Shown: piece by piece, positions 3,056-50,675 of the stretch | Position numbering within the stretch: position 1 is the stretch's first letter | Layout of the letters: each line of letters begins with the position of its first letter | NCBI GenBank assembly: GCA_964571295.1 | Contig: CAZNAO010000002.1 | Coordinates: 8,594-61,495 of the forward strand | Length of the DNA: 52,902 nucleotides | Direction: 5' to 3' | Source of the DNA: an uncultured Gammaproteobacteria bacterium | GTDB lineage: Bacteria > Patescibacteriota > Patescibacteriia > Magasanikbacterales > UBA922 | Made by a program: the position numbers and the translations under genes | The notes under the pieces: generated by a model | The model's input: the letters and a program-made list of their open reading frames with translations, nothing else | Database searches by the model: none | Told to the model about the DNA's origin: nothing

Positions 3056-3775
3056 TTACATGATACCATGTTTACGTGTCACAACTGACTGGGCTTGTTC
3101 GTATTTTCTGACACGCCCGGCAAAAAACGGTAGCCACCTAAAAGGTGCTTGATAGGCAAACGACGGAAGCCATAAACTCATGGACCCTCTTGCCTCAATC
3201 TGAAAGAGTACCTCATCAATCCACACTCCCTGCTTTCCCTGTTCCCCCATCGTGAGCCATAAATCCCAATCCTGAAACCGCTTCAATGTCTCGTCCCACG
3301 AAATCGCCTCACACCTCCGGATAAGCGACGTTGACATGATATAGTTTCTTTTTTTTAATTCTTCAAACGAAAATGTTTTACCACGCATGACTTTTTTTCC
3401 AAACAAAAAATTGGAATACGCAAATGATGCTCGTGGGTTCTCCTGCAGTGCAATATGCATCTTCTGAAGCATGTCCGTATTCCCGACCGCATCCGCGTCC
3501 CAAAAAATTACATACGTGCCCGTCGCTTTCTCAAATCCTCGATTTCTTGCCGCCGGCGCTCCTTTGTTCTCTTGCCTCACATATATAAATTGCGTGTCAG
3601 AAGATTCATTTTTTTTTACTACAGTATCAAATACTGAACGAATGTTCTCAGTACTCCCATCATCAACTACGATAATTTCAAGTGGATGATATGATTGCTG
3701 AGCCACTGACTCAAGCGCGCGAAAAAAAACTTCAGCTCGATTGTACACCGGGATTACCACGCTTATTTGCTCCAT
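3056..3775 (-). CDS. glycosyltransferase family 2
   Basis: VVIPVYNR...VVDDGS...DAD motifs typical of GT-A/GT2 enzymes. Confidence 0.85.
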   Translation of the reverse strand: MEQISVVIPVYNRAEVFFRALESVAQQSYHPLEIIVVDDGSTENIRSVFDTVVKKNESSDTQFIYVRQENKGAPAARNRGFEKATGTYVIFWDADAVGNTDMLQKMHIALQENPRASFAYSNFLFGKKVMRGKTFSFEELKKRNYIMSTSLIRRCEAISWDETLKRFQDWDLWLTMGEQGKQGVWIDEVLFQIEARGSMSLWLPSFAYQAPFRWLPFFAGRVRKYEQAQSVVTRKHGIM

Positions 3776-5157
3776 AATGTTTTGATTTCTTTTTTGCTTT
3801 CCTCCTCATCACTCACTCTGAGCGCAAGCGCCGAGCGCACCACTTCACGATCATCCCATGGAATCATTCTTCCTCCTGCAATGCACATTCCCTGTTCACT
3901 TCCTTTTCCGGTGACCAGAACTATATCTCCCGATTCTGCCATGGCAACCGCACGTTCTACAGCTTCTCTGCGATCTTCAATTATAAATAAATTCTTGCCC
4001 GGCACTTTCCCTTTTTTCTCAACTGCGCCGGACACATCCCGCATGATTTCAAGCGGATCATCGTCATAAGGATCTTCATCGGTTACCACTACGATATCTG
4101 CATGACGCCCTACGTATTCTCCCACCGAAAACCGTCGGGATTTGTCGCGTCCGCCACCCGTAGAACCAAATACGTGGATAATGCGTTTAGGTGATAATTC
4201 GGATACGATACTATACAGCGCCTCGATCGCTTTCGGTTCAAACGCATAATCAACAATGACCTGAAAACCGTGTGGTTCTGCTTCATGAATGAATTCGGTT
4301 CGACCCGGCGCATTCTCGAGACGGAGCGCAATATCCCTAATTTTTTCCGATGACACCCCTAGTATGGAAAGTATGCAAAGTGCAATCGCGCAGTTCTCGG
4401 CATTATGCACACCGTATATATGAGGCGCGACCCGCATCGTATTGAATGAAAATGAAATTCCTGTGGATTCTGACCTGACTTCGGAAATCGTAAAATACTG
4501 TTCAATATCTTCAACCATCCTTTCCCCTCTACCAAACGCATATCGACGATCGAATTTTCCGGCATTCAAAAAATCAGGAGCATGAATGGAATCGCCATTG
4601 ACGAGGGCGATTTTCGGAACGGGTTCTTCCGAATTACCAAGTTTTTTTCTCCGACTCTTTCCCACGTGCTTAAAAATTGAAAGTTTTGCTTGTTTGTAAT
4701 TTTCAAAACTACCATGAGATTCGATATGTTCAGGATAGAGATTGGTCAGGATCATGAAATCGTAATTGATAAACGTGTGCCGGTACTGTACCGCCCCCTC
4801 GGAGGTCGTCTCGACAATTGCAATATCGCAATTTTTATCGACCATCTCGCGCAGATATTTCTGAGTTTTCATTTTTCCGAGCATGGTCATTTTCTGATCG
4901 TTCAATTTATTTTCTCCTGCAATATAAAAATCAATCGTTGAAAGAGAGCCTACGCGGTATCCTGCAGCCTCAAGCGCCGTACGAAGCAGGAAAATCGTCG
5001 TTGATTTCCCGCTGGTCCCCGTGACCCCGATCACCAATAATTCATTTGATGGATTCCGGTAATATAGCGCACCCACAAGCGCAAAAAACCAGTGCCTCAG
5101 ATTGAGCACGCGCTTCGGGATATATTTTTTGATAAGCGATTTCAACTTTTGAACCAT
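3763..5157 (-). CDS. Mur ligase family protein (MurE-like)
   Basis: GVTGTSGKSTT P-loop, plus central and C-terminal Mur ligase domain features (VTDEDPYDDDP in place of the DNPR region). Confidence 0.8.
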   Translation of the reverse strand: MVQKLKSLIKKYIPKRVLNLRHWFFALVGALYYRNPSNELLVIGVTGTSGKSTTIFLLRTALEAAGYRVGSLSTIDFYIAGENKLNDQKMTMLGKMKTQKYLREMVDKNCDIAIVETTSEGAVQYRHTFINYDFMILTNLYPEHIESHGSFENYKQAKLSIFKHVGKSRRKKLGNSEEPVPKIALVNGDSIHAPDFLNAGKFDRRYAFGRGERMVEDIEQYFTISEVRSESTGISFSFNTMRVAPHIYGVHNAENCAIALCILSILGVSSEKIRDIALRLENAPGRTEFIHEAEPHGFQVIVDYAFEPKAIEALYSIVSELSPKRIIHVFGSTGGGRDKSRRFSVGEYVGRHADIVVVTDEDPYDDDPLEIMRDVSGAVEKKGKVPGKNLFIIEDRREAVERAVAMAESGDIVLVTGKGSEQGMCIAGGRMIPWDDREVVRSALALRVSDEEESKKEIKTLWSK

Positions 5158-5172
5158 ACCATGATTCCGGAG

Positions 5173-5745
5173 TTATTTCCTCAGTGACAATTCATACACG
5201 ACATGCTCGATCTTCGAGACCGCAGTTTTCGCCTGGTCAAATTTATTGCGAAGATAGCTCGTAAGATTGCATTCGATCAATTCCCCGATGATCTCTTCTG
5301 CAGCTTCGGCACACTTGGTGACCGTAGCATGGTCGCGCGCGGTCGCAGCTTTGACCGCATACCGATACAATTCTCCGGGTACATCAGTCAACCCGGCGAC
5401 ATACGACTCTGGCGAGATTTTCAACCCTTTCACTTCTCCGATTTTTCCTGTCGTCACAAACTGATACATAAGCTCAGCCTCTACAAATTCTTCAATCGCG
5501 GCTTTATAAGCACCTTCATCAAGAGCCCGAGTATCTTTACTGTATGTTTTTGCGATAGTCCCAAGGATCGTTTTCGCTTCTGCCAGTTTTGTTCCCGCTT
5601 CTTTCACCTGATCACGATGTAGTGCAAAGATCGCGCGCTTGGCATGAAATAAGGCATCATTTGAATCCTTGATCACTTTCTGACGGACGTCAGCATATGA
5701 CAATAAGTCTTTTCTGATTTTTGAGAGAAGCGAAGTATTGAGCAT
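5173..5745 (-). CDS. translin family protein
   Basis: All-helical 190-aa protein. The YVAGLTDVPGELYRY segment matches the translin/TRAX signature (GLxDxxGELxR). Confidence 0.6.
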   Translation of the reverse strand: MLNTSLLSKIRKDLLSYADVRQKVIKDSNDALFHAKRAIFALHRDQVKEAGTKLAEAKTILGTIAKTYSKDTRALDEGAYKAAIEEFVEAELMYQFVTTGKIGEVKGLKISPESYVAGLTDVPGELYRYAVKAATARDHATVTKCAEAAEEIIGELIECNLTSYLRNKFDQAKTAVSKIEHVVYELSLRK

Positions 5746-9769: not shown

Positions 9770-11569
9770 TTACATAAACTTACTCAACTCCTTTATTAAC
9801 CGATCTACTTCTGCTTGCTCACCTCGTGCTTCTGCTTCCGACAATCTAGCTTGGATAGTGACCCGATTCTCTTTATTCCATTCTGTTTTTATTCGAAGAG
9901 CAAGTGTTTCGACTTCTTTTCCCCGTGTATCGGGCGTAAATTCAGAAAAATCTTTTTCACCGAGCAACATGAGAACCTCCACAGGATTCTCGTGATTTTC
10001 CTCTGAATATCGATCACGAATGGAGCCAACTTCAATAGGAATAGACTGAGTATAACCTAACTTTATTATTTCGTAAAGATCGGTATGAATCGGTGTGGAA
10101 AATGGCCCGATTGTGAAAAATTGAGTAGGAAGTGAGGTCACGGTTTCTGGAAACGCCAGTATCAACCCAAAAAGTCGATCAAGTAAAATTTCGAGTCGTC
10201 CTTTTTGAATTGATTTTACGCTCGGCTCCGGTTTTTTTTCCACACCAAATGTCTTTTTTTGCCCACTTTTCAAAATGCGCAACATATCTTCACGAAGCAC
10301 TGATACATCCACCTGTAACCGGTGCGACAGCTGCGTTAACCAATGATCACGTTCGACTGCATACGGAATACGTGAAATCTCCTGCAAGAGTTCATTTGCT
10401 ATTTGTTGCTTCGCTTTAGGATCAGCGATATTTGCGTGCGCAAAGCTCCGATCAAAATACCAATTCATAATTTCTTTTGCATTCACAACCGCAGCAAACC
10501 ATGTTTCTTTGTTCTTCTTGATACATTCATCAGGATCTTTCCCTTGTCCTTCCGGAATTTCGATCACTTTCACATTCATACCTGCTTCGATCAACAGATC
10601 AATACCGCGTTTCGCTGCAGCAACCCCTGCCACATCTCCGTCAAACGACAACGCAATATTATTGGAATAACGCTTAAGGAGTGCGATCTGATGTTCGGTC
10701 AATGCGGTGCCACTGGTCGCGACGACATTGGTCATACCTGCCTGGTGGCACGCGATCACATCCATTTGCCCTTCGACCATGACGATCAGATCTTTCGCTT
10801 TGATTTCACGCTTTGCTTTATTTAGACCAAACAATACCCGTGATTTGTCATACAACATCGTTTGCGGCGTATTTACATATTTACCTCCCGAATGTTCGGT
10901 CTCGACCAAAACCCGCCCGGTAAACCCGACCACCGTATCATGCGCATCCCATATCGGAAACATGATACGCCCCCGAAACCGATCATAAAACCCGCGCATA
11001 CTCCTCGCATCCACCCCTTCTTTTTTGATTGCCAGCCCGCTCGCAAGGATATCATCAATCGCATGGCCTTTTTTCAACAAATATTTCACCAGCAAATCCC
11101 ATTGATCCGGTACGAATCCGATCTGCCACGCTTGAATCGTATCCCGACTCAATCCACGATTGATCAGATAGTCCTCTGCCGACTTTGACTGCGGTAATTT
11201 GGTCAGAATATAGTGGAAAAATTTTGCCGCCTCATGATTGATCGCTTTGATCCTGTTTTTCTGACTGGTCTCAACCGAACTTCCTGTTCGGGACAATTGC
11301 ACTCCCGCTTTATCGGCGAGAAATTTGAGTGCATCGCGGAATTCCATTCCTTCAAGTTCCTGGATAAACGAAAAAATATCGCCGCCCTTGCCACACCCGA
11401 AGCAGTGCCAGCTCTGACGTTCGCGATTCACCATAAACGACGGGCTTTTCTCGTGATGTATCGGGCACAAGCCCTTATGATTGATCCCTGCCGGCTTCAA
11501 TTGAATATATTCGGAAATCAAATCAACCACGTCTATTTTTTCTTTTATCTTGGAAATATCGTCGTTCAT
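9770..11569 (-). CDS. dnaG: DNA primase
   Basis: Zinc ribbon CPIHHEKSPSF...HCFGCGKGGD and Toprim EGQMDV. It lies upstream of rpoD, as in the classical dnaG-rpoD arrangement. Confidence 0.95.
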   Translation of the reverse strand: MNDDISKIKEKIDVVDLISEYIQLKPAGINHKGLCPIHHEKSPSFMVNRERQSWHCFGCGKGGDIFSFIQELEGMEFRDALKFLADKAGVQLSRTGSSVETSQKNRIKAINHEAAKFFHYILTKLPQSKSAEDYLINRGLSRDTIQAWQIGFVPDQWDLLVKYLLKKGHAIDDILASGLAIKKEGVDARSMRGFYDRFRGRIMFPIWDAHDTVVGFTGRVLVETEHSGGKYVNTPQTMLYDKSRVLFGLNKAKREIKAKDLIVMVEGQMDVIACHQAGMTNVVATSGTALTEHQIALLKRYSNNIALSFDGDVAGVAAAKRGIDLLIEAGMNVKVIEIPEGQGKDPDECIKKNKETWFAAVVNAKEIMNWYFDRSFAHANIADPKAKQQIANELLQEISRIPYAVERDHWLTQLSHRLQVDVSVLREDMLRILKSGQKKTFGVEKKPEPSVKSIQKGRLEILLDRLFGLILAFPETVTSLPTQFFTIGPFSTPIHTDLYEIIKLGYTQSIPIEVGSIRDRYSEENHENPVEVLMLLGEKDFSEFTPDTRGKEVETLALRIKTEWNKENRVTIQARLSEAEARGEQAEVDRLIKELSKFM

Positions 11570-11659
11570 ACTACTCTCGAGAGTACTCTATTGTGTACAA
11601 CTTGGCAAGATTTTATCCATGACTATTGACTTATACTGTCACCAGCATATACTTATTGC

Positions 11660-12120
11660 TTGTGCCTAGTGTTTATGGATGACCTACTCCCCCAACCTGG
11701 ATGCAATCCAGGTAAAGGAAAACCCGTCATGCGTGGTGTCATCGTGAATGGTGTTTCAAAATTGTTCTCTGTCCTGAGTTCTGGTCTGAAGCGTCTCCGT
11801 GCCAAGCGGAATCCTCACCAGAACCCTAGGACCTCTCCCGCCTCCACACAGAAGAAGGTCCGCGAGCGGCACACCCACTCCGCTGCTGCCCGTGACGAGA
11901 TGGATCTCATTGATTTCCGCTGACATAGCTCCCCAGTGAGCCTCTTCGTCACGGCCACTACGGCTGTAGTGCCTCGTTCCGACGAGGATCCTTTGTCGCC
12001 ACATTCGTGATCCAGGGGGAGGAGCCATCACACGCAAACACCGCTCGCATCCCCATTGCCGAACCCGATATCTATCGGATTTAGCAAAAGGAGAACCTAC
12101 GAGCGGTGTTTTTGTTTTTA
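11660..12120 (+). ncRNA. candidate large structured ncRNA of unknown class (strand tentative)
   Basis: 460-nt GC-rich intergenic block between dnaG and the kinase gene; only Arg-rich junk ORFs. Eight or more perfect helices, e.g. 11695-11702/11706-11713, 11778-11785/11817-11824, 11890-11898/11946-11954, 11956-11961/11966-11971 and 11972-11977/11982-11987. Promoter TTGACT(11626)-16 nt-TATACT. Terminal stem 12038-12047/12100-12109 is followed by TTTTTGTTTTT. Confidence 0.4.
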
Positions 12121-12131
12121 ACCTTAACGGA

Positions 12132-12839
12132 TTAAAGTTCAATAAACGGTCGGATTACGGTTCCTCTGAACTTTTTTCCCTCTATAGCCTTCTTCACCTC
12201 ATTCAGGTCACTACCTCGAACAATCGAGACGGTCATGCCATACTTTTCCGCGTCCCTGCTCGCGACCGGATCAAACGGAGAATTTTTCCCCGGTTCCCAC
12301 GCATTCCCTACAATTTCTTTCCGGTAGGTTTTCCAGTCGATCACTTCGACCTTTTCCGCATCAGGAAATTTGTTCGGGTCCTTGGTATACACATATTCGA
12401 TGTTCGACACATTCACGAGTTCTTTTGCCCCATATGCCCGCGCGAGCAATACCGCATCTGCGTCCGTACTGCATCCAGGCTTCCAGCCGCAGGCGACGAT
12501 AATCGATTTTTTGGTTTTGACCGGTTTGGTCGGATCACTGATTACTTCTTTATGCGCGTATTCACCAAAAAATAACCGTACAAAATTGGCATTAAGCCGC
12601 GTAGTCTCAATGCCGATCAGATCAAGCGTTTTTGCATCTGCTTTGATTACGCTTTTCAACCCTGTTTGATACGTCCGAGCAGTTGCTCCACCGCCAATAA
12701 CCAAAATAAAAGAGGTGCCTTTTTTTACCTCTGATAGAATTAACTGTTTGAATTTTTTGAGAAATTCGATGTTGAATCCGGTCGACGGGATAATAATTGA
12801 TCCACCGATTGAGAGAATTTTGGTTTGTCGTTTCGCCAT
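12132..12839 (-). CDS. amino-acid-kinase family protein, probable archaeal-type UMP kinase
   Basis: ILSIGGSIIIP and FILVIGGGATAR motifs, with size (235 aa) like archaeal-type PyrH. Confidence 0.65.
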   Translation of the reverse strand: MAKRQTKILSIGGSIIIPSTGFNIEFLKKFKQLILSEVKKGTSFILVIGGGATARTYQTGLKSVIKADAKTLDLIGIETTRLNANFVRLFFGEYAHKEVISDPTKPVKTKKSIIVACGWKPGCSTDADAVLLARAYGAKELVNVSNIEYVYTKDPNKFPDAEKVEVIDWKTYRKEIVGNAWEPGKNSPFDPVASRDAEKYGMTVSIVRGSDLNEVKKAIEGKKFRGTVIRPFIEL

Positions 12840-12948
12840 ACACGATAATGATTAAATTGACTAGCTCGCACTTTAAAACCGCTCGACGTGCGGTAGGCAG
12901 TCTTACCTTTTCCTGCACGATTCGAGCTATATTTTTTCATACATTTCC

Positions 12949-13290
12949 CTATTCTTTGGTAACCACACTTGAGATAATCCAGCTGGTAATACTAAAGAGT
13001 AATGCTCCCCAAAATGCTCCCCAGAACCCGCTTACTTCAAACCCTTTCACGATTGACGATGCAAACCAGAACATGAGCGCATTGATCACCAATGTGAAGA
13101 GTCCAAGTGTAATGATATTCACCGGTAGTGTCAAAATAAGGATCAACGGACGTATGAGCGCATTCACGATTCCAAGCACGATCACCGTAATGATTGCTGA
13201 ATACCATCCACCCAATTTGATCCCCTGGATGACATTGGAGATGAGAAGCAATGCTCCTGCATTGAGTAACAACCGAAGGACGAAAAGCAT
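12949..13290 (-). CDS. holin family 4 / DUF360 (YvlD-like) small membrane protein
   Basis: 113 aa with 3-4 TM helices. LIRPLILILTLPVNIITLGLF is typical of this family. Confidence 0.65.
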   Translation of the reverse strand: MLFVLRLLLNAGALLLISNVIQGIKLGGWYSAIITVIVLGIVNALIRPLILILTLPVNIITLGLFTLVINALMFWFASSIVKGFEVSGFWGAFWGALLFSITSWIISSVVTKE

Positions 13291-13418: not shown

Positions 13419-14783
13419 ATGCCAGAACTGAAACTATATAATACGCTCACCCGAGAAATTGAAATATTCAAACCGATTGAAAACAAGAAGGTCGGACTCT
13501 ATACCTGTGGACCGACGGTATACAATTATCCTCACGTCGGAAACTATCGGGCATATGTCACCGCAGATATTCTTAAACGCGTCCTCATGACTCATGGATA
13601 CCAAGTGAACCATGTCATGAACCTTACCGACGTTGACGATAAAACTATTCGTGATTCGCAAAAAGAACATAAAAGTTTAAAAGAATTCACCGAGTACTAT
13701 ACTGAAAAATTTTACGAGGATTTATCAAAACTTAATATACAGCCCGCGACCATATACACTAAAGCAACGGACCACATCGGAGAAATGGTTGCAATTATTG
13801 AAAAACTTATTGAAAAAGGCTTCGCATACACGGACGACCACGGAAGTGTATATTTTAATGTTCAATCCTGGAAAGACTACGGGCACCTTTCCGGTCTTGA
13901 CCTACAGGCATTGAAACATAATGCGGCAGGCCGAATAACAAAAGATAATTACGACAAAGAGAATGCACATGATTTCGCGCTATGGAAGGCATGGGATGAA
14001 GCTGACGGCGAGGTATTTTGGGAAACTTCTCTCGGCAAAGGCCGCCCCGGTTGGCATATTGAATGCTCGGCAATGTCCATGAAACATCTAGGCAACCATT
14101 TTGATATCCATACCGGTGGCATCGATCTTATTTTTCCACATCACGAGAATGAAATCGCACAGTCAGAATGCTCGACTGGCGAACACTTCGTGAACTATTG
14201 GGTTCATAATGAATGGCTCTTGGTTGACGGTAAAAAAATGTCGAAATCAGATAAAAATTTCATCACCATACCTGAGCTTATCGAAAAAGAGTATTCCCCA
14301 CTTGCTTACCGCTATTTCTTATTGCAGGCACATTACCGAAAACAGCTCAATTTCACCTGGGAAGCACTTGAAGCTGCAGAAAATGGTATTAGAAATCTAT
14401 ACCGAACGATTCAATCACTCGGTTCTGAAGTTGGCAGTACCGATGAAGTATGGTACACGAAATTCCAAGATGCGCTTGCCGATGATTTGAATACACCACA
14501 AGCGCTTGCACTATTCCACGATATGCTCAAATCAGACATACCACCAGCATCAAAACTTGCAACCGCATATGCATGTGACGAAATTCTAGGCTTGGGATTA
14601 CAGCAAATCAAAAATCACTCCGTAGAAATTCCTGCCGCAGTGACCAGACTTCTCGAAGAACGTGCGAATGCTCGCGCGGAAAAAAACTGGTCCGAGAGTG
14701 ATCGACTCCGTGATGAGATCAATCGGCTCGGATTTGATATTGACGACACCGCAGACGGGCAGCGCCTCACCACCCGTGCATAA
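13419..14783 (+). CDS. cysS: cysteine--tRNA ligase
   Basis: HVGNYR (HIGH-type) and KMSKS motifs, plus WHIECS. Confidence 0.95.
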   Translation: MPELKLYNTLTREIEIFKPIENKKVGLYTCGPTVYNYPHVGNYRAYVTADILKRVLMTHGYQVNHVMNLTDVDDKTIRDSQKEHKSLKEFTEYYTEKFYEDLSKLNIQPATIYTKATDHIGEMVAIIEKLIEKGFAYTDDHGSVYFNVQSWKDYGHLSGLDLQALKHNAAGRITKDNYDKENAHDFALWKAWDEADGEVFWETSLGKGRPGWHIECSAMSMKHLGNHFDIHTGGIDLIFPHHENEIAQSECSTGEHFVNYWVHNEWLLVDGKKMSKSDKNFITIPELIEKEYSPLAYRYFLLQAHYRKQLNFTWEALEAAENGIRNLYRTIQSLGSEVGSTDEVWYTKFQDALADDLNTPQALALFHDMLKSDIPPASKLATAYACDEILGLGLQQIKNHSVEIPAAVTRLLEERANARAEKNWSESDRLRDEINRLGFDIDDTADGQRLTTRA

Positions 14784-14862
14784 CTTCTTCACATTTTGTA
14801 GCGGGCTGGTTTATTTTTTGCTATACTATACGCGCACGGATTTCCGTGTGCGTTTTCATGCT

Positions 14863-15405
14863 ATGGCAACACCGGACACTTTGAAACAAAATATACCCTC
14901 ATCTGAAATACCCGTAACAGAAGGTGCTTCTTTTCGAGTAGAACAGCAACCAAAACCACAACCTGAAAGCATAGTCCACTCCCCTGAAACGGAAAAGTCA
15001 TCCGAAACTGAATCGCAACCAAAACCACAACCTGAAAATGTAGAATCAGCAATTCAGTCATTGACCCAAAAATTACGCGGCAACAAAAAAAAGAAAACCG
15101 AGATCCCGACCATCAAAGACGAAATTACCCGACGCGTCGAGCGCGTGATGGAAGAAGGATTGGGAGATGCCTACCGCGAATTGACCGTAGTACAGCAACA
15201 GGAATTCAAAATCAAAGGAGAAGAAACGGCGTGGAAAATACGACAACTACTCAAACGCGGACATATCAAGATAAAGGAAATTTTCAAATTGCTCGTGGAA
15301 TGGCTACGCCTCCTACCGGGGATCAATAAATTTTTTATCGAACAAGAAGCAAAGATAAAAGCGGACAAAATTCTGGCACTGAGCAAACATCAACGCTTCG
15401 AATAA
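14863..15405 (+). CDS. hypothetical protein with duplicated QPKPQPE segment
   Basis: In-frame ATG at 14863 after the cysS stop. The 23-nt DNA repeat gcaaccaaaaccacaacctgaaa occurs twice, 72 nt apart. The gene ends 5 nt before the ATPase gene. Confidence 0.55.
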   Translation: MATPDTLKQNIPSSEIPVTEGASFRVEQQPKPQPESIVHSPETEKSSETESQPKPQPENVESAIQSLTQKLRGNKKKKTEIPTIKDEITRRVERVMEEGLGDAYRELTVVQQQEFKIKGEETAWKIRQLLKRGHIKIKEIFKLLVEWLRLLPGINKFFIEQEAKIKADKILALSKHQRFE

Positions 15406-15410
15406 TTCCT

Positions 15411-17990
15411 ATGTTACCACTGCTGCAATTCACTACCGGATTTCCTGAAGAAACCTCACTCGTCGTACCTACCGGGATCACTATCCCGTTTTTTACAGTG
15501 ATTGTTGCGGCAGTAACTCTCATATCAATGATAGCTATTATTCTGATTATCCGAAGTGTTCTCCATTCGGTTCATCAGGTACGGAAAGCATTTGATCGTA
15601 CCGTACTCCATATTCTCGTACCCAAAGAACGCAAATCCGAAGGTTCGGGAAATGCATCTCAGGAAGACCGTCTTGAACAAGTGAAAGAAGAAATTGGAAT
15701 CACTGAAACATTCTTCTCCACCGTTGCCGGACTGAAGCCTGAGCACGGACTCGGAAAATGGTTTACCGGTCGAAATGACCACATCTCATTTGAATTAGTG
15801 GTTGACAATGGACTCATCAACTTCTATATCGCGGTCCCACACAAATTCAAGCCGTTTGTTGAACAACAGATCAATGCGCAATACCCCTACGCACATATCG
15901 AAGAAATCACCGACTATAATATTTTTACTGAAAAAAGTTCCATTGTGGGGGCGTATCTTAAAGCAAAAGACGCTGCACCACTCCCTTTTAAAACCTATAA
16001 AAAAATGGATTCCGATCCCCTGTCCGGCATACTCAATGCACTCGCCCGGATCCACGAGGCAGACAGTTCTGCTGCAATCCAATTCGTACTTCGTCCTGCG
16101 TATAAAAAATGGCGTCGCGAAGGGGTACGCATCGTTCGCGAAGTCCGAAAAGGAAAACGGTTTGAAGAGGTGGTTGGTGGAAAACATTCAATCGGAGGTT
16201 TTTTAAACTCATTCAGTGCTGAAGCGAAACGGCAGGTTCTTGATCTCAATACCACAGAAACAACAAAGGAAGCATACCAACTCTCAGCTCTCGAAGAAGA
16301 AATGCTCAAAGGAATCGAAGAAAAACTGATCAAAGGAGGGCTCGATGTCACGATTCGTGTCGTATCAGCATCTGACAATCCAGAGCTTGCCCGCATGAAT
16401 CTCGACAATATCGTCAATTCGTTCGGCCCGTACAATCTCTACCGGTACGGCAATTCACTGGAAGCGATCGTTCCCAAAAATCCGCAAAGCATTATCCGAT
16501 CGTTCATCTACCGCTCATTTCATGAAAAGCGCCACAGTATCCTCAATACCGAAGAAATGGCAGGATTCTGGCATCTGCCGCTTCACTCGACTGAAGCTCC
16601 GAATATCAAGTGGCTCCTTGCGCGTAAAGCTCCACCACCACCCAACCTCCCTACAAGCGGTATCGATCTCGGACGAGTCATCTATCGCGGGCAGGAATAT
16701 CCCGTGAAGATGAAAGACGAGGACCGTCGCCGTCATCTCTATGTCATTGGAAAATCCGGAAGCGGGAAATCAGTGTTCATCGAAAACCTTGCGGTGCAGG
16801 ATGTGATCAATGGCAAGGGTCTTGCGGTTATTGACCCTCATGGAGATTTTGCTGAATACGTACTCGAACACATCCCGAAAGAACGCGCTGACGACGTCAT
16901 CATCTTCAATCCATCTGATTTCGAGCGACCGATCGGACTCAACATGCTTGAAGCAAAAAGTGAGGATGAAAAAGACTTTGCGGTGCAAGAAATGATCGCG
17001 ATCTTCTACAAACTCTTCCCTCCTGAGATGATCGGACCCATGTTCGAACACAACATGCGAAATGTGATGTTGACCCTCATGGCCGACCTCGATAATCCAG
17101 GCACCATAATAGATATTCCCCGCATGTTCACTGATGATGCGTATGTCAAAAAATATCTGGTGAAATTAAAAGATCCGGTTGTACGTGCATTCTGGGAAAA
17201 AGAAATGGCAAAGACGAGTGATTTCCATAAATCGGAGATGCTTGGATACCTTATCTCGAAAGTCGGACGATTCGTAGAGAATGAAATGATGCGGAATATC
17301 ATGGGACAGCAAAAATCAGGATTTGATTTTCGTGATATCATGGATAACCAGAAGATCCTGATCGTCAACCTTGCTAAAGGAAAAACCGGTGAAGTGAATG
17401 CGAAACTTATCGGCCTCATCATCGTCGCGAAGCTCCAAATGGCGGCACTCGGCCGCGCTGACCTTCCGGAAGATCAGCGCAAGGACTTCTATCTCTATAT
17501 CGACGAGTTCCAAAATTTCATCACTGATTCGATCGCCACCATCCTTTCCGAAGCCCGCAAGTACCGGCTCGACCTCATCATTGCGCATCAGTATCTCGGA
17601 CAACTGACTGATGAAAAAGGCAAATCGGATATCAAGGATGCGGTTCTTGGAAACGCAGGTACTATGGCAGCCTTCCGTATCGGTCCTGAAGACTCGGAAT
17701 TGCTTGCCAAGGAATTTGCACCTGTATTTGGCCCCTATGACCTTATGAATGTCGAGAAATTCACCGCCAATATCAAACTGCTTATCGACAATGAACCCAC
17801 CAAGCCCTTTAATATGGCAACCTACCCCCCAACTCGGGGAAACAGAGAATTGGGTAATGCTATCCGCGAACTCTCACGCCTCAAACACGGCCGTGATCGA
17901 CGGATTGTGGAAGCTGAGATACTTGAACGTACCAAACTCGGAGAAAGTACCGAGGGAAGTAAAACAGACATGATCGAGGCGAGTCTGTAA
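15411..17990 (+). CDS. VirD4/TraD-like (type IV coupling protein-like) P-loop ATPase, N-terminal TM
   Basis: Walker A YVIGKSGSGKS, Walker B FYLYIDEFQNF, and the AHQYLGQL motif typical of the TraG/TraD C-terminal region. An N-terminal hydrophobic helix is present. Confidence 0.75.
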   Translation: MLPLLQFTTGFPEETSLVVPTGITIPFFTVIVAAVTLISMIAIILIIRSVLHSVHQVRKAFDRTVLHILVPKERKSEGSGNASQEDRLEQVKEEIGITETFFSTVAGLKPEHGLGKWFTGRNDHISFELVVDNGLINFYIAVPHKFKPFVEQQINAQYPYAHIEEITDYNIFTEKSSIVGAYLKAKDAAPLPFKTYKKMDSDPLSGILNALARIHEADSSAAIQFVLRPAYKKWRREGVRIVREVRKGKRFEEVVGGKHSIGGFLNSFSAEAKRQVLDLNTTETTKEAYQLSALEEEMLKGIEEKLIKGGLDVTIRVVSASDNPELARMNLDNIVNSFGPYNLYRYGNSLEAIVPKNPQSIIRSFIYRSFHEKRHSILNTEEMAGFWHLPLHSTEAPNIKWLLARKAPPPPNLPTSGIDLGRVIYRGQEYPVKMKDEDRRRHLYVIGKSGSGKSVFIENLAVQDVINGKGLAVIDPHGDFAEYVLEHIPKERADDVIIFNPSDFERPIGLNMLEAKSEDEKDFAVQEMIAIFYKLFPPEMIGPMFEHNMRNVMLTLMADLDNPGTIIDIPRMFTDDAYVKKYLVKLKDPVVRAFWEKEMAKTSDFHKSEMLGYLISKVGRFVENEMMRNIMGQQKSGFDFRDIMDNQKILIVNLAKGKTGEVNAKLIGLIIVAKLQMAALGRADLPEDQRKDFYLYIDEFQNFITDSIATILSEARKYRLDLIIAHQYLGQLTDEKGKSDIKDAVLGNAGTMAAFRIGPEDSELLAKEFAPVFGPYDLMNVEKFTANIKLLIDNEPTKPFNMATYPPTRGNRELGNAIRELSRLKHGRDRRIVEAEILERTKLGESTEGSKTDMIEASL

Positions 17991-18035: not shown

Positions 18036-18785
18036 ATGGACCACATTTCGAATCTACTTAACTTTTCAACTGCAAATCACGACGGGGACAATACTCCTCC
18101 TGATGACATGAATATCAGCCGCGGGATTCCCACATTTGATGATTTGCCGCTCGCATCAACCCAGAAATCTCCTGAGAAAGAGAACAGTAACACAGGACAA
18201 CCACAACAAGTGCAAACGGAAGATCAAGTATCTGCCAAATCCTCTGAGCTCAACATCCCTGACCTCAAGAAACGTCTCTACACACTAAAAGATGAGATTT
18301 CTTCAATTATCCGACTACTTGAAACTGGGACAACAGCACCGGAATTATCTAGTAACACCAGCCGACCAAAACCTACCCAGACAGAAGGCTCTCAGATAAT
18401 GACACCCTCAGGAGAGCAAATCATCGAAGGAGTGTTTACTGGAGAAAAAATGCGAGGACCAGACGGACACGAGTATGTGGTTCCGCCGAATTATGCAAGT
18501 AAATCGAAACTGGTCGAAGGCGACCGTATGAAATTGACGATTACGAATTACGGAAAGTTTATCTACAAACAGATCGGGCCAATCGAGCGTAAGCGCATTA
18601 TCGGCGTACTTCAGTTTGACGAAGCGACCCAGATGTGGAGCGTCGTACACGAAGGAAACACTTATAAAATCCTTACTGCATCAGCCACCTTCTATCACGG
18701 GAAACCCGGTGACCACGTCGTCATTCTCGTACCGAAAGATATGGCGTGTAGTTGGGGTGCAGTTGAGAATATTATTGCATCGTAA
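18036..18785 (+). CDS. hypothetical protein (disordered N-terminal half, beta-rich C-terminal domain)
   Basis: 249-aa ORF co-directional with and directly downstream of the ATPase. No motif recognised. Confidence 0.55.
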   Translation: MDHISNLLNFSTANHDGDNTPPDDMNISRGIPTFDDLPLASTQKSPEKENSNTGQPQQVQTEDQVSAKSSELNIPDLKKRLYTLKDEISSIIRLLETGTTAPELSSNTSRPKPTQTEGSQIMTPSGEQIIEGVFTGEKMRGPDGHEYVVPPNYASKSKLVEGDRMKLTITNYGKFIYKQIGPIERKRIIGVLQFDEATQMWSVVHEGNTYKILTASATFYHGKPGDHVVILVPKDMACSWGAVENIIAS

Positions 18786-25486: not shown

Positions 25487-26434
25487 ATGCCTGTTTACCT
25501 CTCAGTTCTTATCCTTGTCGTGTTATTTTTCTTTCTAGGCGCTTCTGCCAATGTAGTCGTTGATAATATCAAAAAAATCGCAAAAACCCTCAGAGTTCCC
25601 ACATTTATCTTGGGATTGATTCTGGGTATTCTCACGTCATTTCCCGAACTTTCGATCGCGATCAACACCTCGATCAAAGGTGTTCAGGATGTATCGGTCG
25701 GCAATTTGTTCGGCGGAATTTTCGTGGTATTCTGCATCATTCTCGGACTGGGACTTATACTCAATCGGAAAATAAAAACCGATGGTAAGGTTACTACCCC
25801 ATTACCTGCATTTGCATTATTATTCACCCCACTCATACTCGGATTCGACGGAATTTTGACCATGCTTGATGGGGTTATCATCTCTCTTGGTTATCTTGCA
25901 GTTCTTACGCATTTTTATTTTAGAACCAGAGATGCTCAATCTGTTGGTATTACCATCGTAAAATCGAATACACTCGTCAAAGAAATATTTTTTGTAATCA
26001 GCGGAACCCTCGTCGTAATCGGAGCTTCGAATTTCATCGTAAAAATTACGGTTGACATCCTTTCAGTATTCAATATTTCCGGCTTTACCATAGGACTCAT
26101 GGTATTTTCACTCGGTACCAATCTGCCGGAATTGACCGTCATCATCACCTCCTGGAGAAAAAAGCTCAAAGAGATTTCATTCAGCCACATGCTCGGCTCC
26201 GCAATCGTCAATCCTTTGATTTTTGCAATCATGACATTCTTTGCGCCTGTGCCCATGGCAGTCGACCGGGCATATCTTTTTATCTGCTATTTCCTCTTCA
26301 TACTCTCGGCAGTACTTCTTTATTTTTACAAAAGCAATAAGAGCCTCAGTCGTCCTGAAGGTATCGTGCTCCTCATTATTTTCCTGATTTTTGCCGCCCT
26401 CCAGGCTACGCTCCTTCCTGCGCATTTGATGTAA
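25487..26434 (+). CDS. CaCA family sodium/calcium exchanger membrane protein
   Basis: Two internally repeated halves with alpha-repeat-like segments (GNLFGG; GTNLPEL). Confidence 0.75.
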   Translation: MPVYLSVLILVVLFFFLGASANVVVDNIKKIAKTLRVPTFILGLILGILTSFPELSIAINTSIKGVQDVSVGNLFGGIFVVFCIILGLGLILNRKIKTDGKVTTPLPAFALLFTPLILGFDGILTMLDGVIISLGYLAVLTHFYFRTRDAQSVGITIVKSNTLVKEIFFVISGTLVVIGASNFIVKITVDILSVFNISGFTIGLMVFSLGTNLPELTVIITSWRKKLKEISFSHMLGSAIVNPLIFAIMTFFAPVPMAVDRAYLFICYFLFILSAVLLYFYKSNKSLSRPEGIVLLIIFLIFAALQATLLPAHLM

Positions 26435-26485
26435 GCGAGTGTTTGCCCAAGGATATTCTCCCCAGGCAAACACCATACGGCGGCA

Positions 26486-26833
26486 TCAGACTTCGGCGGG
26501 GCGCTGGCGTCGCCAGACGACCTTCTGATGTGCTCCGACACGGCACACATCGACCGCCTCAGTCCCGATCACACCGTCGACCGAATAGAGCCAAAAAAGG
26601 CTCTCTCCACGATCTTCACGGATTCCGCGGATCTCGGTGACGTAGGAGTGCTGTCTGCCATCGACCTGTCTCACCTCATAGACCACATCTGCCTCATGCA
26701 CCAGCAGACGTTTCAGTACAGTCTCATCCCCATCAAGGTCGACATCGCACCCGGATTTCACGAGCGCCATGCTCGCGAGTGCTACACCGCCCTTGAGAAG
26801 ACTTCCCAAGAATGCACGACGATCGGTTTCCAC
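26486..26833 (-). CDS. DUF4430 (transcobalamin beta-domain-like) protein with Tat-type signal, GC-rich
   Basis: GTG start preceded by AAGAAGGTGGAG. Twin-arginine signal DRRAFLGSLL followed by a Cys (VKSGC). C-terminal YVTEIRGIREDRGESLFWLYSVDGV...VVW matches the DUF4430 pattern seen in the genes at 31084 and 31685. Confidence 0.65.
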   Translation of the reverse strand: METDRRAFLGSLLKGGVALASMALVKSGCDVDLDGDETVLKRLLVHEADVVYEVRQVDGRQHSYVTEIRGIREDRGESLFWLYSVDGVIGTEAVDVCRVGAHQKVVWRRQRPAEV

Positions 26834-26957
26834 CTTATCAACTCCACCTTCTTAGACACACAACACCCGCCAGGATTTCTGGCGGGTAGTATGTTCATTT
26901 AGACATCCGATACGGATCACAACACAAGCACGGAATTGCGATACGTAATGGGATATC

Positions 26958-30230: not shown

Positions 30231-30361
30231 TCCTATACACCAAGACTTATTTCTTGCTTGGCTTATCTGTATCTAAAAATATTTTCACATATAGATAAGC
30301 CGACAGTCCGAGACAAATCCCTGTAGTACAGGTATGTCTCGGACTGCCATCCTCCTTGCCT

Positions 30362-30706
30362 TCACGCACGCACCTTCTCCGGGGCTCGGTATGCCGCGTG
30401 TGCGGCAACCTTGCCCTCCATCTCGAGCTCGATCCTGATCTGATCGACCAAGTCGTCGCCCTCTTTCGGCGTCATCGCGACGATCAACTGTCCGACCGGA
30501 GTGTCGATCGTGACCGAGACATGCTCTTTGAGCGTCTTGAAGGACGCGACGTAGAGCTGCCGGAAGACCGGACTCTGCCACTCCTTCGTGACCGTGATTA
30601 CGTCTTTCGCGGACGAACTCACTTTCATCGAGCCGACGATCTTGCCCGGTCCCCCGAATAATGCGTCGAGCTTCATCTCGATTTCCTGCGCTTTTTCCGG
30701 CTTCAC
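30362..30706 (-). CDS. hypothetical protein (GC-rich islet)
   Basis: 114-aa ORF with balanced composition, preferred over the overlapping Arg-rich 158-aa frame. A 12-bp perfect hairpin follows at 30303-30349. Confidence 0.45.
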   Translation of the reverse strand: MKPEKAQEIEMKLDALFGGPGKIVGSMKVSSSAKDVITVTKEWQSPVFRQLYVASFKTLKEHVSVTIDTPVGQLIVAMTPKEGDDLVDQIRIELEMEGKVAAHAAYRAPEKVRA

Positions 30707-30861
30707 AGCGGTTTCCCCCTTTGCATTGCGCTGTCTCCCTGGTCAATACAGGCATGACCAAAAGATAGACGATCCTACCCTATTCTTGCTTCGCTGTCAA
30801 GGTTACCCGAATTATCCACACGATACCAAAAAATGGCTATAATAACAAGGTATTCCCCTAT

Positions 30862-30896: not shown

Positions 30897-31075
30897 TCAT
30901 TTACAATCCAACCATATCCTACTGGAACCGGGGTGGAATTCCCCGACTGTGCCGCAACGGTAAAAGTCCGATCTTGTAGAATATGTGTCCTCCCGAGCAG
31001 GAAACGATACGTCGTATCTTTATGATACCGGCGTATTGTATATACACATTCCTCGGCTCAGGGGAATTTTTTTTA
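30897..31075 (+). promoter_or_regulatory. cobalamin riboswitch-like leader (aptamer plus intrinsic terminator)
   Basis: Core GGAACCGGGGUGGAAUUCCCCGACUGUGCCGCAACGGUAAAAGUCCG (30924-30970) and B12-box-like CUCCCGAGCAGGA (30990-31002). Terminator AUUCCUC/GGGGAAU (31048-31067) plus U8. Shares an exact 16-mer CTGTGCCGCAACGGTA and the 13-mer with the leader at 26958-27105. Confidence 0.7.
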
Positions 31076-31083
31076 TCTCAACT

Positions 31084-31704
31084 ATGCAAAAAAAGCTCCT
31101 ATATTTCCTCATTACTCTTTTTGCCACGGCGACCTTGGTAAGCGGGTATTGGATAGTTGAAGGCCAAAAAATCAAAACGCCTGAAAACGAACCAATTACC
31201 ATTACCGAATCGCAATACGATGATAGGCAAGAGGTTGCAGAAGAGGAACAGGAAATTGAATCCAATACCGAAGACACTGTCAATTATCGGTCCACGACCA
31301 CTCAGACAATCAGTGATCCCAACCATCAGGAAACCAAGCCTCCTGCAGAGGCGACAATCGCCCCCGATGAAGAAACTAATCCTTACGAAATATTTGAAGC
31401 GAAAGTGACGCTCGCGATCGATGGAAAAAATCTTCATATCCCCTATCACGATAGCATGACCGCTGAACGTGCGATGCGGGAAGTTGCACAACGGTATCCT
31501 GAATCATTCCACTATGAAGGAATCGAATATGGCGGGGACCTCGGCACATTCGTGACGGCGATCAACGGTAAGAAAGAAAATCCACAAGAAAAAATGCGCT
31601 GGATCCTGTATCTCAATGGAAGCGCATCAAATAAAGGAATATCAACACTCAAACTTAATCCAGACGATATACTCTCATGGAACTATGAAAAAGAAACTCT
31701 ATAG
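31084..31704 (+). CDS. membrane-anchored DUF4430 domain protein
   Basis: Start at MQKKLLYFLITLF (signal/TM), then an acidic linker. C-terminal GTFVTAINGKKENPQEKMRWILYLNGSASNKGISTLKLNPDDILSW matches the DUF4430 pattern. Confidence 0.75.
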   Translation: MQKKLLYFLITLFATATLVSGYWIVEGQKIKTPENEPITITESQYDDRQEVAEEEQEIESNTEDTVNYRSTTTQTISDPNHQETKPPAEATIAPDEETNPYEIFEAKVTLAIDGKNLHIPYHDSMTAERAMREVAQRYPESFHYEGIEYGGDLGTFVTAINGKKENPQEKMRWILYLNGSASNKGISTLKLNPDDILSWNYEKETL

Positions 31705-41400: not shown

Positions 41401-41450
41401 TGCACGCACACCTCGATTAGTGTACGAACCTTAGCCCGTATCGTGTTCCA

Positions 41451-42146
41451 TCACAGCGGAAAACGGTGATGCACGACGAAATTCATGCCCTTCTGATTGA
41501 GCTCGTAGGACACGATGTCGACCGCGGAGAAGACATTGTCCCGCTGCACGATCGGGCACGTCTCCACGATACGCGCCAGCTCGCTCTTCTCGAGGATCTC
41601 GGGTGAGACCAGCTCAGTGAAGCGTGCGAGTGTCATGTGCACTCCCCACGGTTCGACCGGCAGCACACCTCGCACCCTAACCCTCTCGAGCATGAACGAC
41701 ATCATCTCGATCAGTTCAGAAGCAGGGTACGCTGTCACGAGTGCCGTTGTCCGATTGAAAATCGCACGGTTGAGTTTGCTCATGAGACGGCTCTTGTCGT
41801 GACTCGCCCACTGTTGCACAGTCTCCTCGACCGCATCATGGAAGATGTCCACGAGACGATCTTTTTCTTCGTCACTTCCCGGTACATCCGTGACCGTGAC
41901 CGTAGTATGGAGATCGGTCGGTCGGTAGACGAGCACCGACGGAAGTACCCGCTTCATGTCGAGAGTCCATTGTGCGAACTCTTGCATGATCGACACCTGC
42001 GGACGCAGGACGATCCCGACACCACTCGCACGGTTCTGGTACGCCGGGTCGGGCACGAGTCCTTCCTTGATCGCATCCCGGTATCCGAACCATAATTTCT
42101 GATGGATTTTCTCCTGGTGCTGCACGAACTCGGGGTAGTTGAGCAC
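41451..42146 (-). CDS. 2H phosphoesterase superfamily (LigT-like) protein, GC-rich
   Basis: Two HxT/S motifs at the appropriate spacing: LHTTVTV and VHMTLAR. GTG start with a GGAAGG RBS. Confidence 0.55.
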   Translation of the reverse strand: MLNYPEFVQHQEKIHQKLWFGYRDAIKEGLVPDPAYQNRASGVGIVLRPQVSIMQEFAQWTLDMKRVLPSVLVYRPTDLHTTVTVTDVPGSDEEKDRLVDIFHDAVEETVQQWASHDKSRLMSKLNRAIFNRTTALVTAYPASELIEMMSFMLERVRVRGVLPVEPWGVHMTLARFTELVSPEILEKSELARIVETCPIVQRDNVFSAVDIVSYELNQKGMNFVVHHRFPL

Positions 42147-42283
42147 GATTTACCTTCCTTTTTGGGTTGTGAGTGTCTTTTCGGACTATATGTATCTATC
42201 ACGTCAACCTTATTTTGTCAAGCTATGGATATATCAAAAAATGCCTCTGATAGGCATTTTTACTAATACGAAAGAAGTCAATC

Positions 42284-49829: not shown

Positions 49830-50675
49830 ATGCCCACACTTCACATTCTCGGATCGGGAAGCTGCTTTCCGACAACATTACAAAAGGGGCGATTGCCTCC
49901 GGGCTATCTGATCGAATGGGGACAATCTTCCCGTTTGCTTTTTGAATGTTCCGAAGGAATTACCCGACGACTGGAAGCGATCGGCGTCTTGCCCGATGAT
50001 ATCGCGCACCTTGCGGTGAGCCACTCGCATCCCGATCATTGCGCCCTACCACAATTCATCCAATCCACACACTGCTCCCGCAGCACCAAACCCGGATTTT
50101 CACGGGACGATCCGTCTACGTTTTCGGAATTGCATCTCTACACGTCGAAACATATTATCAAAAACCTTCCGATCCTCAACAAAATTCATTTTCAAGAGAC
50201 GGTCGCCGGAAAAACCGCAGGTCTCGTATTCCCGATCATTCATCCGCATGAACTTCCTGCGCCTGATTCAATCGCTCTGCCTGAAGGGGCCACACTCACT
50301 GCAGCGCATGTGTATCACGGATTCGGCAAAGTCGATGCGCTCGCGTTCCGCCTCACGCTTCCGTCGGGCATAGTTATCGCGTATTCGGGAGACACGGGCA
50401 TGTGTGATGGAATCATGGACATCGCCCGGGGTGCTGACATATTCATTTCAGAAGCATCGACCTTGATCGGGGACGACACAGCTGCACACGTCTACGGACA
50501 CCTGAATCCGAGACAAGCGGGTGAGATCGCGCGACAAAGCGGGGTCAAACAATTGATTCTCACCCATTATGCCGGATTTGATTCGCCCCGTGCCATGAAA
50601 AAAGACTGTAAACGAAGCGGCTTTGCCGGGAAAATAATCATTGCGATGGATGGAATGAAACTGCGCATACCATAA
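49830..50675 (+). CDS. MBL-fold metallo-hydrolase
   Basis: HSHPDH metal-binding motif. Confidence 0.8.
   Translation: MPTLHILGSGSCFPTTLQKGRLPPGYLIEWGQSSRLLFECSEGITRRLEAIGVLPDDIAHLAVSHSHPDHCALPQFIQSTHCSRSTKPGFSRDDPSTFSELHLYTSKHIIKNLPILNKIHFQETVAGKTAGLVFPIIHPHELPAPDSIALPEGATLTAAHVYHGFGKVDALAFRLTLPSGIVIAYSGDTGMCDGIMDIARGADIFISEASTLIGDDTAAHVYGHLNPRQAGEIARQSGVKQLILTHYAGFDSPRAMKKDCKRSGFAGKIIIAMDGMKLRIP

Follow-up and report, generated by a model that had tools for sequence, protein, structure and literature searches.

Several described systems resemble, each in one part, the locus considered here. Staphylococcus aureus RNAIII (hld) and the enterobacterial small RNAs (sRNAs) that derive from 3′ untranslated regions (3′ UTRs) are the models of dual-function or 3′ UTR RNAs, which act by base pairing or protein binding. 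Among type I toxin–antitoxin modules, txpA/ratA and bsrG/SR4 have convergent transcripts that share a bidirectional terminator. To these can be added the single-pass membrane proteins encoded by small open reading frames (ORFs), and bidirectional intrinsic terminators at large. Our subject is the 562-nt gap between pyrH and dnaG, positions 11570–12131 of a 52,902-nt stretch (contig CAZNAO010000002.1 of assembly GCA_964571295.1, positions 8,594 to 61,495), hereafter the window. The gene order is rpoD-dnaG, gap, pyrH, and the host, placed through its DnaG homologues, belongs to Candidatus Magasanikbacteria (Patescibacteria, or Candidate Phyla Radiation, CPR). A first-pass annotation, made from the letters alone, had taken the gap for an orphan structured non-coding RNA (ncRNA) of about 460 nt, and had suggested an Rfam scan, a nucleotide search of relatives and a covariation test. 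The locus is not a new class of large ncRNA. Most probably it is a self-contained mRNA gene for a lineage-specific 64-residue protein, whose 3′ UTR is structured and whose bidirectional terminator also serves pyrH; small-protein gene, structured 3′ UTR and bidirectional terminator are all of known kinds.

With the single-pass membrane genes the locus shares an ORF of 58–79 codons that has a promoter and a Shine-Dalgarno sequence to itself, a hydrophobic helix at the N-terminus with a charged tail behind it, and a lineage-restricted, fast-evolving product of the kind often missed by annotation. It differs in that the small protein has no homology to any described family, that an amphipathic basic helix replaces the transmembrane (TM) helix in the window lineage, and that the 3′ UTR is unusually long and conserved. 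Like other bidirectional intrinsic terminators, that of the locus has a GC-rich stem, an A-rich tract upstream, a U-rich tract downstream and a convergent gene end nearby, but its hairpin is 72 nt long with internal loops, and the interior is conserved beyond the needs of termination. The features in common with RNAIII and the 3′ UTR sRNAs are a few-hundred-nt transcript encoding a small peptide, a best-conserved 3′ domain, and a terminator hairpin with a C-rich box; here, however, the box lies inside the stem instead of the apical loop, and the locus has no sequence or Rfam similarity to those RNAs. Finally, the type I toxin mRNAs (hok, aapA1, txpA, bsrG) likewise encode a small peptide of the membrane type on a long structured mRNA, are patchily present and have a convergent complementary 3′ end. 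In contrast to them, the locus yielded no dedicated antisense RNA gene in a promoter scan, and it is single-copy and syntenic, with a longer peptide, a conserved acidic tail and a 5′–3′ lock that is not conserved.

The evidence for a protein-coding gene is comparative. The annotation had seen no believable ORF in the gap. A plus-strand ORF runs from the ATG at 11729 to the TGA at 11923, with a Shine-Dalgarno sequence, AAGGA, 9 nt upstream of the ATG; its 64-residue product is already a called gene in a public protein collection (P0001; a second entry, P0002, is 88% identical). We found homologous inserts, which we call cassettes, at the same site in relatives (loci are denoted L with a number). 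In all 12 distinct cassettes, the window included, a plus-strand ORF of 58–79 codons occupies the same place; a purine-rich, Shine-Dalgarno-like sequence stands before it, and the ORF begins 40–75 nt after the predicted 5′ end. The ORF is uninterrupted in 11 of the 12, the exception being L004, to which we return below. Between the window and L110 the ORF has 16 substitutions, divided equally between synonymous and non-synonymous changes (8/8; dN/dS 0.30, binomial P = 0.026); the first 24 and the last 10 codons changed synonymously only, and in shifted frames the synonymous and non-synonymous proportions are about equal (pS ≈ pN), without bias. The ORFs of L003 and L111, both of 76 codons and with zero indels, differ by 59 substitutions that are distributed 17/10/32 over the three codon positions (chi-square P = 0.0016), with a dN/dS of 0.14. 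For L002 and L005 the ratio is 0.44, and every alignment gap consists of whole codons. The corresponding dN/dS of dnaG in the same genome pairs is 0.07–0.08. Judged from these substitutions, the small ORF is under purifying selection. The idea of a non-coding locus does not survive the comparison: a conserved coding signal in homologous loci, which the annotation itself had named as contrary to its reading, is what was found.

Two competing gene calls can be set aside. One is a 128-codon minus-strand ORF at 11756–12142, which L110 has in interrupted form; it is not a gene. In L117/L118 (2517-3708), DnaG has been called as a protein of 675 residues, its N-terminus having been extended antisense through the cassette by the gene caller; alignment puts the real start at MNDDISRIKEK, where the window protein also begins.

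The cassettes were collected in two steps. A nucleotide profile search (nhmmer) with the gap sequence, as the annotation had suggested, revealed inserts of ~450–600 nt upstream of dnaG in L002, L003, L004, L005 and L051. Peptide-profile searches and look-ups of PyrH homologues added L110, L111, L115, L116, L117/L118, L119 and L120; L115 is the same as L051, and L117/L118 is counted as one cassette. All 12 lie between pyrH and dnaG, in one clade of Magasanikbacteria, and inheritance of the single-copy, syntenic cassette is vertical. Both cassette ends carry most of the nucleotide conservation, the middle being barely alignable. The close relatives L001, L112/L113 and L114 have instead a pyrH–dnaG spacer of 105–110 bp with a simple terminator, and some 70 more distant Magasanikbacteria loci are also without the cassette. 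This distribution fits a cassette ancestral to one Magasanikbacteria clade and, on present sequences, probably lost a few times. Insertion as a mobile element was considered and rejected, as the empty sites of L001, L112 and L114 have neither target duplications nor terminal repeats, and the filled sites have none either; a multi-copy repeat was likewise rejected, as a covariance model of the hairpin described below finds one copy in the 53-kb window. Two relatives have other genes here. In one with 70% PyrH identity (L121:1181-2020), a 279-residue TIR-domain gene lies directly downstream of pyrH in the cassette's place, and in L120 (2365-3003) an extra gene of 212 residues, without a Pfam match, lies between pyrH and the cassette.

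The layout of the locus in the window is as follows.

11580–11608, minus strand: candidate dnaG promoter, read from the sequence (−35 TTGCCA at 11603–11608, 17-nt spacer, −10 TACTCT at 11580–11585)
11626–11653, plus strand: predicted sigma-70-type promoter of the small gene, TTGACT-16 nt-TATACT (promoter scan and conservation)
11659–11728, plus strand: predicted 5′ UTR, ~70 nt, from the inferred transcription start
11729–11923, plus strand: small ORF, 64 codons, MRGVIVNGVSKLFSVLSSGLKRLRAKRNPHQNPRTSPASTQKKVRERHTHSAAARDEMDLIDFR (conservation and substitution pattern)
11929–12021, plus strand: three-helix domain (minimum free energy (MFE) folds and hand alignment)
11929–11934 and 12016–12021, plus strand: helix P1, CUCCCC/GGGGAG
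11951–11955 and 11963–11967, plus strand: helix P2, ACGGC/GCUGU
11973–11977 and 11982–11986, plus strand: helix P3, CUCGU/ACGAG
12027–12037, plus strand: A-rich linker of the CAUCACACGCAAACA type, with an A-rich equivalent in all relatives; U-rich when read on the minus strand
12038–12109, plus strand: long terminator hairpin, 72 nt (fold and covariation)
12110–12120, plus strand: U-tract UUUUUGUUUUU, predicted intrinsic terminator
12132–12134, minus strand: pyrH stop codon, just past the plus-strand U-tract
9770–11569, minus strand: dnaG, with primase domains
12132–12839, minus strand: AA_kinase-family gene of 235 residues (pyrH), whose homologues are named UMP (uridine monophosphate) kinase in the sources

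The promoter of the small gene is, by sequence comparison, conserved: TTGAC(A/T)-16/17-TATAAT-like hexamers stand at the same relative position in all 11 relatives with complete upstream sequence, and are followed by a conserved YUUGUG. The candidate dnaG promoter, ~10 nt upstream of the dnaG ATG, is back-to-back with it at a distance of 17 bp. The dnaG block is kept in all relatives, the cassette-free ones included, but it falls below the promoter-scan threshold and is therefore a candidate only; the scan of the minus strand from 11000 to 13000 found no promoter-like site. Downstream, the predicted 5′ UTR contains the YUUGUG at its start, a C-run, CUCCCCC (11686–11692), a hairpin (11695–11713) and the Shine-Dalgarno AAGGA (11715–11719). 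The hairpin still pairs in L110 through a U·G change and is not conserved in other lineages. In the folds of the window and L110, the 5′ UTR C-run pairs with a G-run of the 3′ UTR and so encloses the ORF; in the other lineages the G-run pairs with a C-run of the 3′ UTR instead. A 5′–3′ lock on the mRNA was accordingly rejected as a conserved feature, being seen in those two folds only.

Much of what the annotation had said about the outline of the unit holds. The promoter hexamers and the terminal stem with its U-run are present at 11626–11653 and 12038–12109, and frame a unit antisense to both neighbors, since dnaG and pyrH are both on the minus strand. The GC content over 11700–12100 is 0.56–0.60 against a window mean of 0.448 (standard deviation 0.047, 300-nt windows), about three standard deviations higher, so that the gap is GC-rich as claimed. 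These observations support an autonomous plus-strand transcription unit, predicted to be ~460 nt long and antisense to both neighboring genes.

The 3′ UTR, ~195 nt, consists of a C-run/G-run helix enclosing two hairpins, followed by the 72-nt terminator hairpin, and the hairpin is its best-supported element. The outer stem, ACACCGCUCG/CGAGCGGUGU, pairs 12038–12047 with 12100–12109 and is followed by TTTTTGTTTTT. Inside, CCCC pairs with the GGAG of an AAGGAG box, and the apical stem is CCGAUA/UAUCGG. A stable hairpin with a U-tract is found in 12 of 12 cassettes, as is the A-rich tract upstream. When 11 sequences were aligned on a covariance model, 94.5% of the cells could pair, and nine pairs had changes on both sides; in slid controls, with the partner moved by 1–3 columns, pairing was just 36–45%. 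An independent MAFFT alignment of eight sequences gave 95.2% pairing and eight pairs changed on both sides. Three of the outer-stem covariations amount to one haplotype switch (CGCUCG vs. CAGUUG). In the eight-sequence alignment, there are 16 G·U pairs when the plus strand is read and 3 when the minus strand is read, and paired cells number 198 of 208 and 185 of 208, respectively. From the excess of G·U and of pairing on the plus strand it follows that the selected RNA is that of the plus strand. The hairpin thus covaries in these alignments, with a G·U pattern favoring the plus strand, and the covariation the annotation had wished to see exists, strand-specific, in the terminal hairpin.

Conservation of the hairpin extends to its sequence. 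It is 89–97% identical between the window, L111, L003 and L051, whose DnaG proteins are ~72% identical, and the interior, GCAYCCCCAYUG … GCAMAAGGAGAAYC, is nearly invariant. Between the plus-strand U-tract and the stop codon of the convergent pyrH gene lie 11 nt. Because of the A-rich tract upstream, the U-tract downstream and the adjacent pyrH stop, the hairpin should terminate both transcripts. In L120 (3055-3149), the hairpin is diverged (40 bits), with the outer stem kept and a different interior. Scanning 80 Magasanikbacteria loci with the hairpin model revealed no further copies, only weak terminator-like matches. In a more distant Magasanikbacteria genome, a hairpin that shares the layout CCCAYUG … CAGUAGGAG reaches 27.5 bits with the model (L018:10-98, plus strand). 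It is found where a contig ends, 4 kb away from dnaG, and may represent a remotely related motif at a different locus. A pattern scan of metagenomes with TCGGATNNRGCAMAAGGAGAA produced 28 matches in JGI and one in IMG/VR, none of which fits the covariance model, and these were dismissed as chance.

Upstream of the hairpin, the three-helix domain recurs in 10 of 12 independent MFE folds of the 3′ UTRs. P1 joins a C-run located soon after the stop codon to a G-run that precedes the terminator hairpin by 10–25 nt, and it encloses P2 and P3; the window domain also holds extra, lineage-specific hairpins. Eight sequences aligned by hand to the structure show several standard pair types per position in P1 and P2, and one compensatory pair in P3 (CUCGC/GCGAG; CUCGU/ACGAG in the window). 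Sequence conservation covers the C-run, the G-run and the P3 stem, the last two being nearly invariant, while the loops and junctions vary freely, so that the stems alone are conserved. The alignments lend moderate support to P1–P3 as a real and conserved domain, for reasons given below. Ribosome-mediated attenuation at P1 was rejected because the spacing between stop codon and C-run is variable, at 0 to 31 nt. What stands of the proposed ~460-nt structured RNA is its 3′ ~190 nt, which is conserved and folded; the remainder of the locus is not.

Does the locus fold better than chance, and does it match a known RNA? For the whole 466 nt, the z-scores are −5.0 (plus strand) and −5.4 (minus strand). 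The terminator hairpin alone has an MFE of −34.9 kcal/mol and a z-score of −6.8, and the remaining 373 nt without it a z-score of −3.1. Folded separately, the ORF, the 5′ UTR with the ORF, and the 3′ UTR without the terminator give z-scores of −0.3 to −1.3 (30 shuffles each). The excess stability is mainly that of one hairpin, plus the long-range C-run/G-run closure, and, given the z-scores of the sub-regions, most of the helix density is GC-rich chance together with one very strong hairpin. The eight helices listed in the annotation are all perfectly complementary, as it said, but as conserved structure only some of them last. The two terminator helices are invariant, and helix 11972–77/11982–87 is conserved and corresponds to P3. 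The helices of the ORF and the middle of the UTR do not covary. Helices 11695–11702/11706–11713 and 11778–11785/11817–11824 keep their pairing in L110 via U·G changes, helix 11956–61/11966–71 has only three of six pairs left there, uncompensated, and helices 11890–98/11946–54 and 12007–11/12027–31 lose pairs without compensation. As to known families, the annotation had matched no transfer-messenger RNA (tmRNA), RNase P, signal recognition particle (SRP) or riboswitch core, and it was right in this. The Rfam 15 covariance models (among them RNase P, tmRNA, SRP, 6S, OLE, GOLLD, ROOL, HEARO, raiA and the riboswitches) gave no match at the gathering score over 11450–12300, and none in the relatives' cassettes. 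At E ≤ 10 the sole match in the 851-nt region was sRNA41 (E = 4.4), taken as chance. ARAGORN found no tmRNA and no tRNA in the locus.

The encoded protein is an orphan. Five peptides scanned against Pfam, NCBIfam and PADLOC had sub-threshold, composition-driven matches only, and a phmmer search of 1.84 billion representatives with the window peptide returned its own cluster (P0002) and one marginal protein of 522 residues, and nothing else. Peptide identity is ~20% between the window, L111, L003 and L051. Nine of the 12 homologues have an N-terminal TM helix (Kyte-Doolittle-19 maximum 2.3–3.5; cut-off 2.2), and several of these, across lineages, share an IPAV(L) motif in the TM segment. The N-terminus of the window and L110 peptides is a cationic amphipathic helix with a hydrophobic moment of 1.84, and the L116 peptide has neither type of helix (Kyte-Doolittle-19 maximum −0.24). 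After the N-terminal segment come a mostly basic linker, basic in the window as well, and an acidic tip that ends near a Phe. Outside the last 12 residues the net charge is positive in nine of the 12; the C-terminal 12 residues are net acidic in 11 of the 12, and several tips include hydrophobic residues, e.g., …SDLDIGGF, …SDLDIAGF, …ADLDEAGF, …LDDLEINGF, …GDDTESF, …LDELAEFGL and, in the window, …DEMDLIDFR. In most homologues of the TM type, positive charges follow the helix, so by the positive-inside rule the tail is predicted to be cytoplasmic. The small protein is predicted to work at the membrane by way of its acidic tail.

The acidic tip calls to mind SSB (a protein that binds single-stranded DNA), whose C-terminal hexapeptide DDDIPF binds DnaG primase among other partners (PMC3632105, PMC5872125). 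The small protein, too, ends in an acidic segment with hydrophobic residues, with a terminal Phe in five of the 12 homologues, and its gene adjoins and diverges from dnaG. However, the window peptide ends in …DLIDFR, those of L003 and L111 in …DVSQ and …APTQ, respectively, and the small protein has no oligonucleotide/oligosaccharide-binding (OB) fold, unlike SSB; the likeness is a resemblance only. A tblastn search for SSB and FtsZ, for comparison of C-termini, found neither gene in the window or the relatives' loci. A literature search on Patescibacteria small proteins and ncRNA and on SSB-tail mimics turned up nothing relevant.

Putting these elements together, we propose that the promoter at 11626–11653 drives an mRNA of ~460 nt, and that the hairpin terminates both this transcript and the convergent pyrH transcript. 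The hairpin would also insulate dnaG-rpoD from pyrH read-through and, together with the three-helix domain, would protect the mRNA at its 3′ end. That the hairpin is so highly conserved in sequence suggests an additional, sequence-specific role: it could bind a protein, or the two convergent mRNAs could pair through their complementary 3′ ends.

Several points weigh against this proposal. Terminator and stabilizer roles do not explain the 89–97% identity of the hairpin interior. The window peptide itself lacks a TM helix (Kyte-Doolittle-19 maximum 1.04, the same in L110). In L004, codon 48 of the ORF is followed by an in-frame TAG; the frame (reverse complement of 3400-4000) runs on past it to the conserved …ADLDEAGF end, and the TAG could be a recent pseudogene mutation, a sequencing error or a read-through site. 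The comparison of the window with L110 rests on just 16 substitutions. The dS of the ORF between these two, 0.19, is below the 0.57–0.73 of dnaG and pyrH, which implies nucleotide-level constraint beyond coding, so that the RNA may have a function too. For P1–P3 the alignment was hand-fitted to the structure, and MAFFT misaligned P1 between subgroups; support for the domain is therefore moderate. Lastly, transcription start, termination and translation are all predicted from sequence.

Constraint beyond coding would suit a dual-function RNA or a 3′ UTR-derived regulator, in which the 3′ ~190 nt is the main selected element and acts in trans or in cis. The invariant hairpin interior, the G-run and the P3 stem, together with the low dS of the ORF relative to the neighboring genes, leave room for such an RNA: the hairpin stays 89–97% identical where the peptides are ~20% identical, the C-run is conserved in sequence along with the G-run and P3, and the covariation is specific to the plus strand. 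We nevertheless regard it as unlikely, since neither a target nor a processing site nor an internal promoter came to light, part of the C-rich box is paired in a stem instead of being exposed in a loop, and there is a single copy in 53 kb. Quite unlikely, in our estimation, is a module like the type I toxin–antitoxin systems, with a membrane-active peptide as toxin, a structured mRNA limiting its translation and the 3′ end of the pyrH mRNA or an antisense RNA as antitoxin. The TM helix in nine of 12 homologues and the cationic amphipathic helix in the window would suit a toxin, as would the fast evolution of the peptide next to conserved regulatory RNA parts, the absence of the cassette from the close relatives, the closure of the 5′ UTR C-run on the 3′ UTR G-run around the ORF in the window fold, and the convergent transcripts with a common bidirectional terminator. 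Against it, the minus strand of the gap has no promoter-like site, and between the terminator and pyrH there is no space for an antitoxin gene, so that the pyrH 3′ end alone overlaps. The 5′–3′ closure is not conserved across lineages, and the peptides, 58–79 residues with long hydrophilic tails and a conserved acidic tip, exceed most type I toxins in length. Purifying selection acts on the cassette, which is syntenic, vertically inherited and present in a single copy, and it has no PADLOC or Pfam toxin match.

The original view, a non-coding RNA of a new class with a fortuitous ORF, can point to the lack of any Rfam, tmRNA or tRNA match, to the strong z-score of the fold, and to the conserved promoter and terminator. 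It has become very improbable: the ORF is open in all cassettes but that of L004, with its one TAG, and shows coding-type substitutions; the ORF and mid-UTR helices are broken without compensation in the closest relative, L110; the sub-regions without the terminator fold no better than shuffles; and the middle is barely alignable as nucleotides while the peptide architecture persists. An even fainter chance attaches to a riboswitch-like 3′ element, in which a three-helix aptamer and the hairpin terminator would control read-through and hence an antisense RNA against pyrH. Riboswitch-controlled antisense transcription is known elsewhere, the three-helix domain lies directly upstream of an intrinsic terminator, and the G-run could pair with either the P1 C-run or the CCCC box in the terminator arm. 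However, this complementarity stops at 4–5 G·C pairs and would leave the 10-bp outer stem intact, the unconserved loops and junctions of P1–P3 disfavor a ligand-binding aptamer, Rfam offers no match, and the downstream gene, pyrH, is convergent and not on the same strand.

The small-protein gene with a structured 3′ UTR and shared terminator, which we prefer, can be extended in one direction, speculative and as a whole rather doubtful: a dual-function CPR RNA that couples a new 3′ regulatory motif with a membrane-anchored peptide engaging a replisome protein. In it, P1–P3 and the CCCC/AAGGAG hairpin might pair or bind protein in a sequence-specific way, a kissing contact with the pyrH mRNA at its complementary 3′ end being one example, and the SSB-tip-like acidic C-terminus might bind a replisome protein, the neighboring primase being a candidate; both parts are conjectured jointly. 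The lesson of the locus is that an intergenic island which is rich in GC, dense in helices and equipped with a promoter and a terminator can be a missed small-protein gene and not a new RNA class, and that comparative coding tests are the quickest way to separate a small-protein gene from an ncRNA. An orphan small-protein family and an unusually conserved 3′ UTR/terminator motif are added to the sparse knowledge of regulation in the CPR. The one surprise is the degree of 3′ hairpin conservation in a CPR lineage. The motif adjoins the core dnaG-rpoD operon and, if a sequence-specific function proves true, would be among the few regulatory RNA elements described in the group.

Other features of the window lie outside the locus. 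The gap is one of five GC-rich islands (at least 0.56 in 300-nt windows), the others being at 26351-26800, 30301-30750, 41401-42150 and 50201-50550; the ORFs 26528-26902 and 30285-30761, inside such islands, are without a Pfam match. At 15411-17990 on the plus strand is a gene for an 859-residue VirD4/TraG-like type IV coupling protein, flanked by the ORFs 14662-15405 and 18036-18785, which have no Pfam match. The minus strand encodes at 5173-5745 a 190-residue protein of the Translin family (Pfam E = 2e-22), a family best known from eukaryotes and archaea and here found in a Patescibacteria genome. An AdoCbl-II (cobalamin) riboswitch at 30916-30982, plus strand, scores 40 bits against a gathering score of 36.5 and lies directly upstream of the ORFs 30985-31704 and 31616-34348, which have DUF4430 and cobalamin-binding-like domains.

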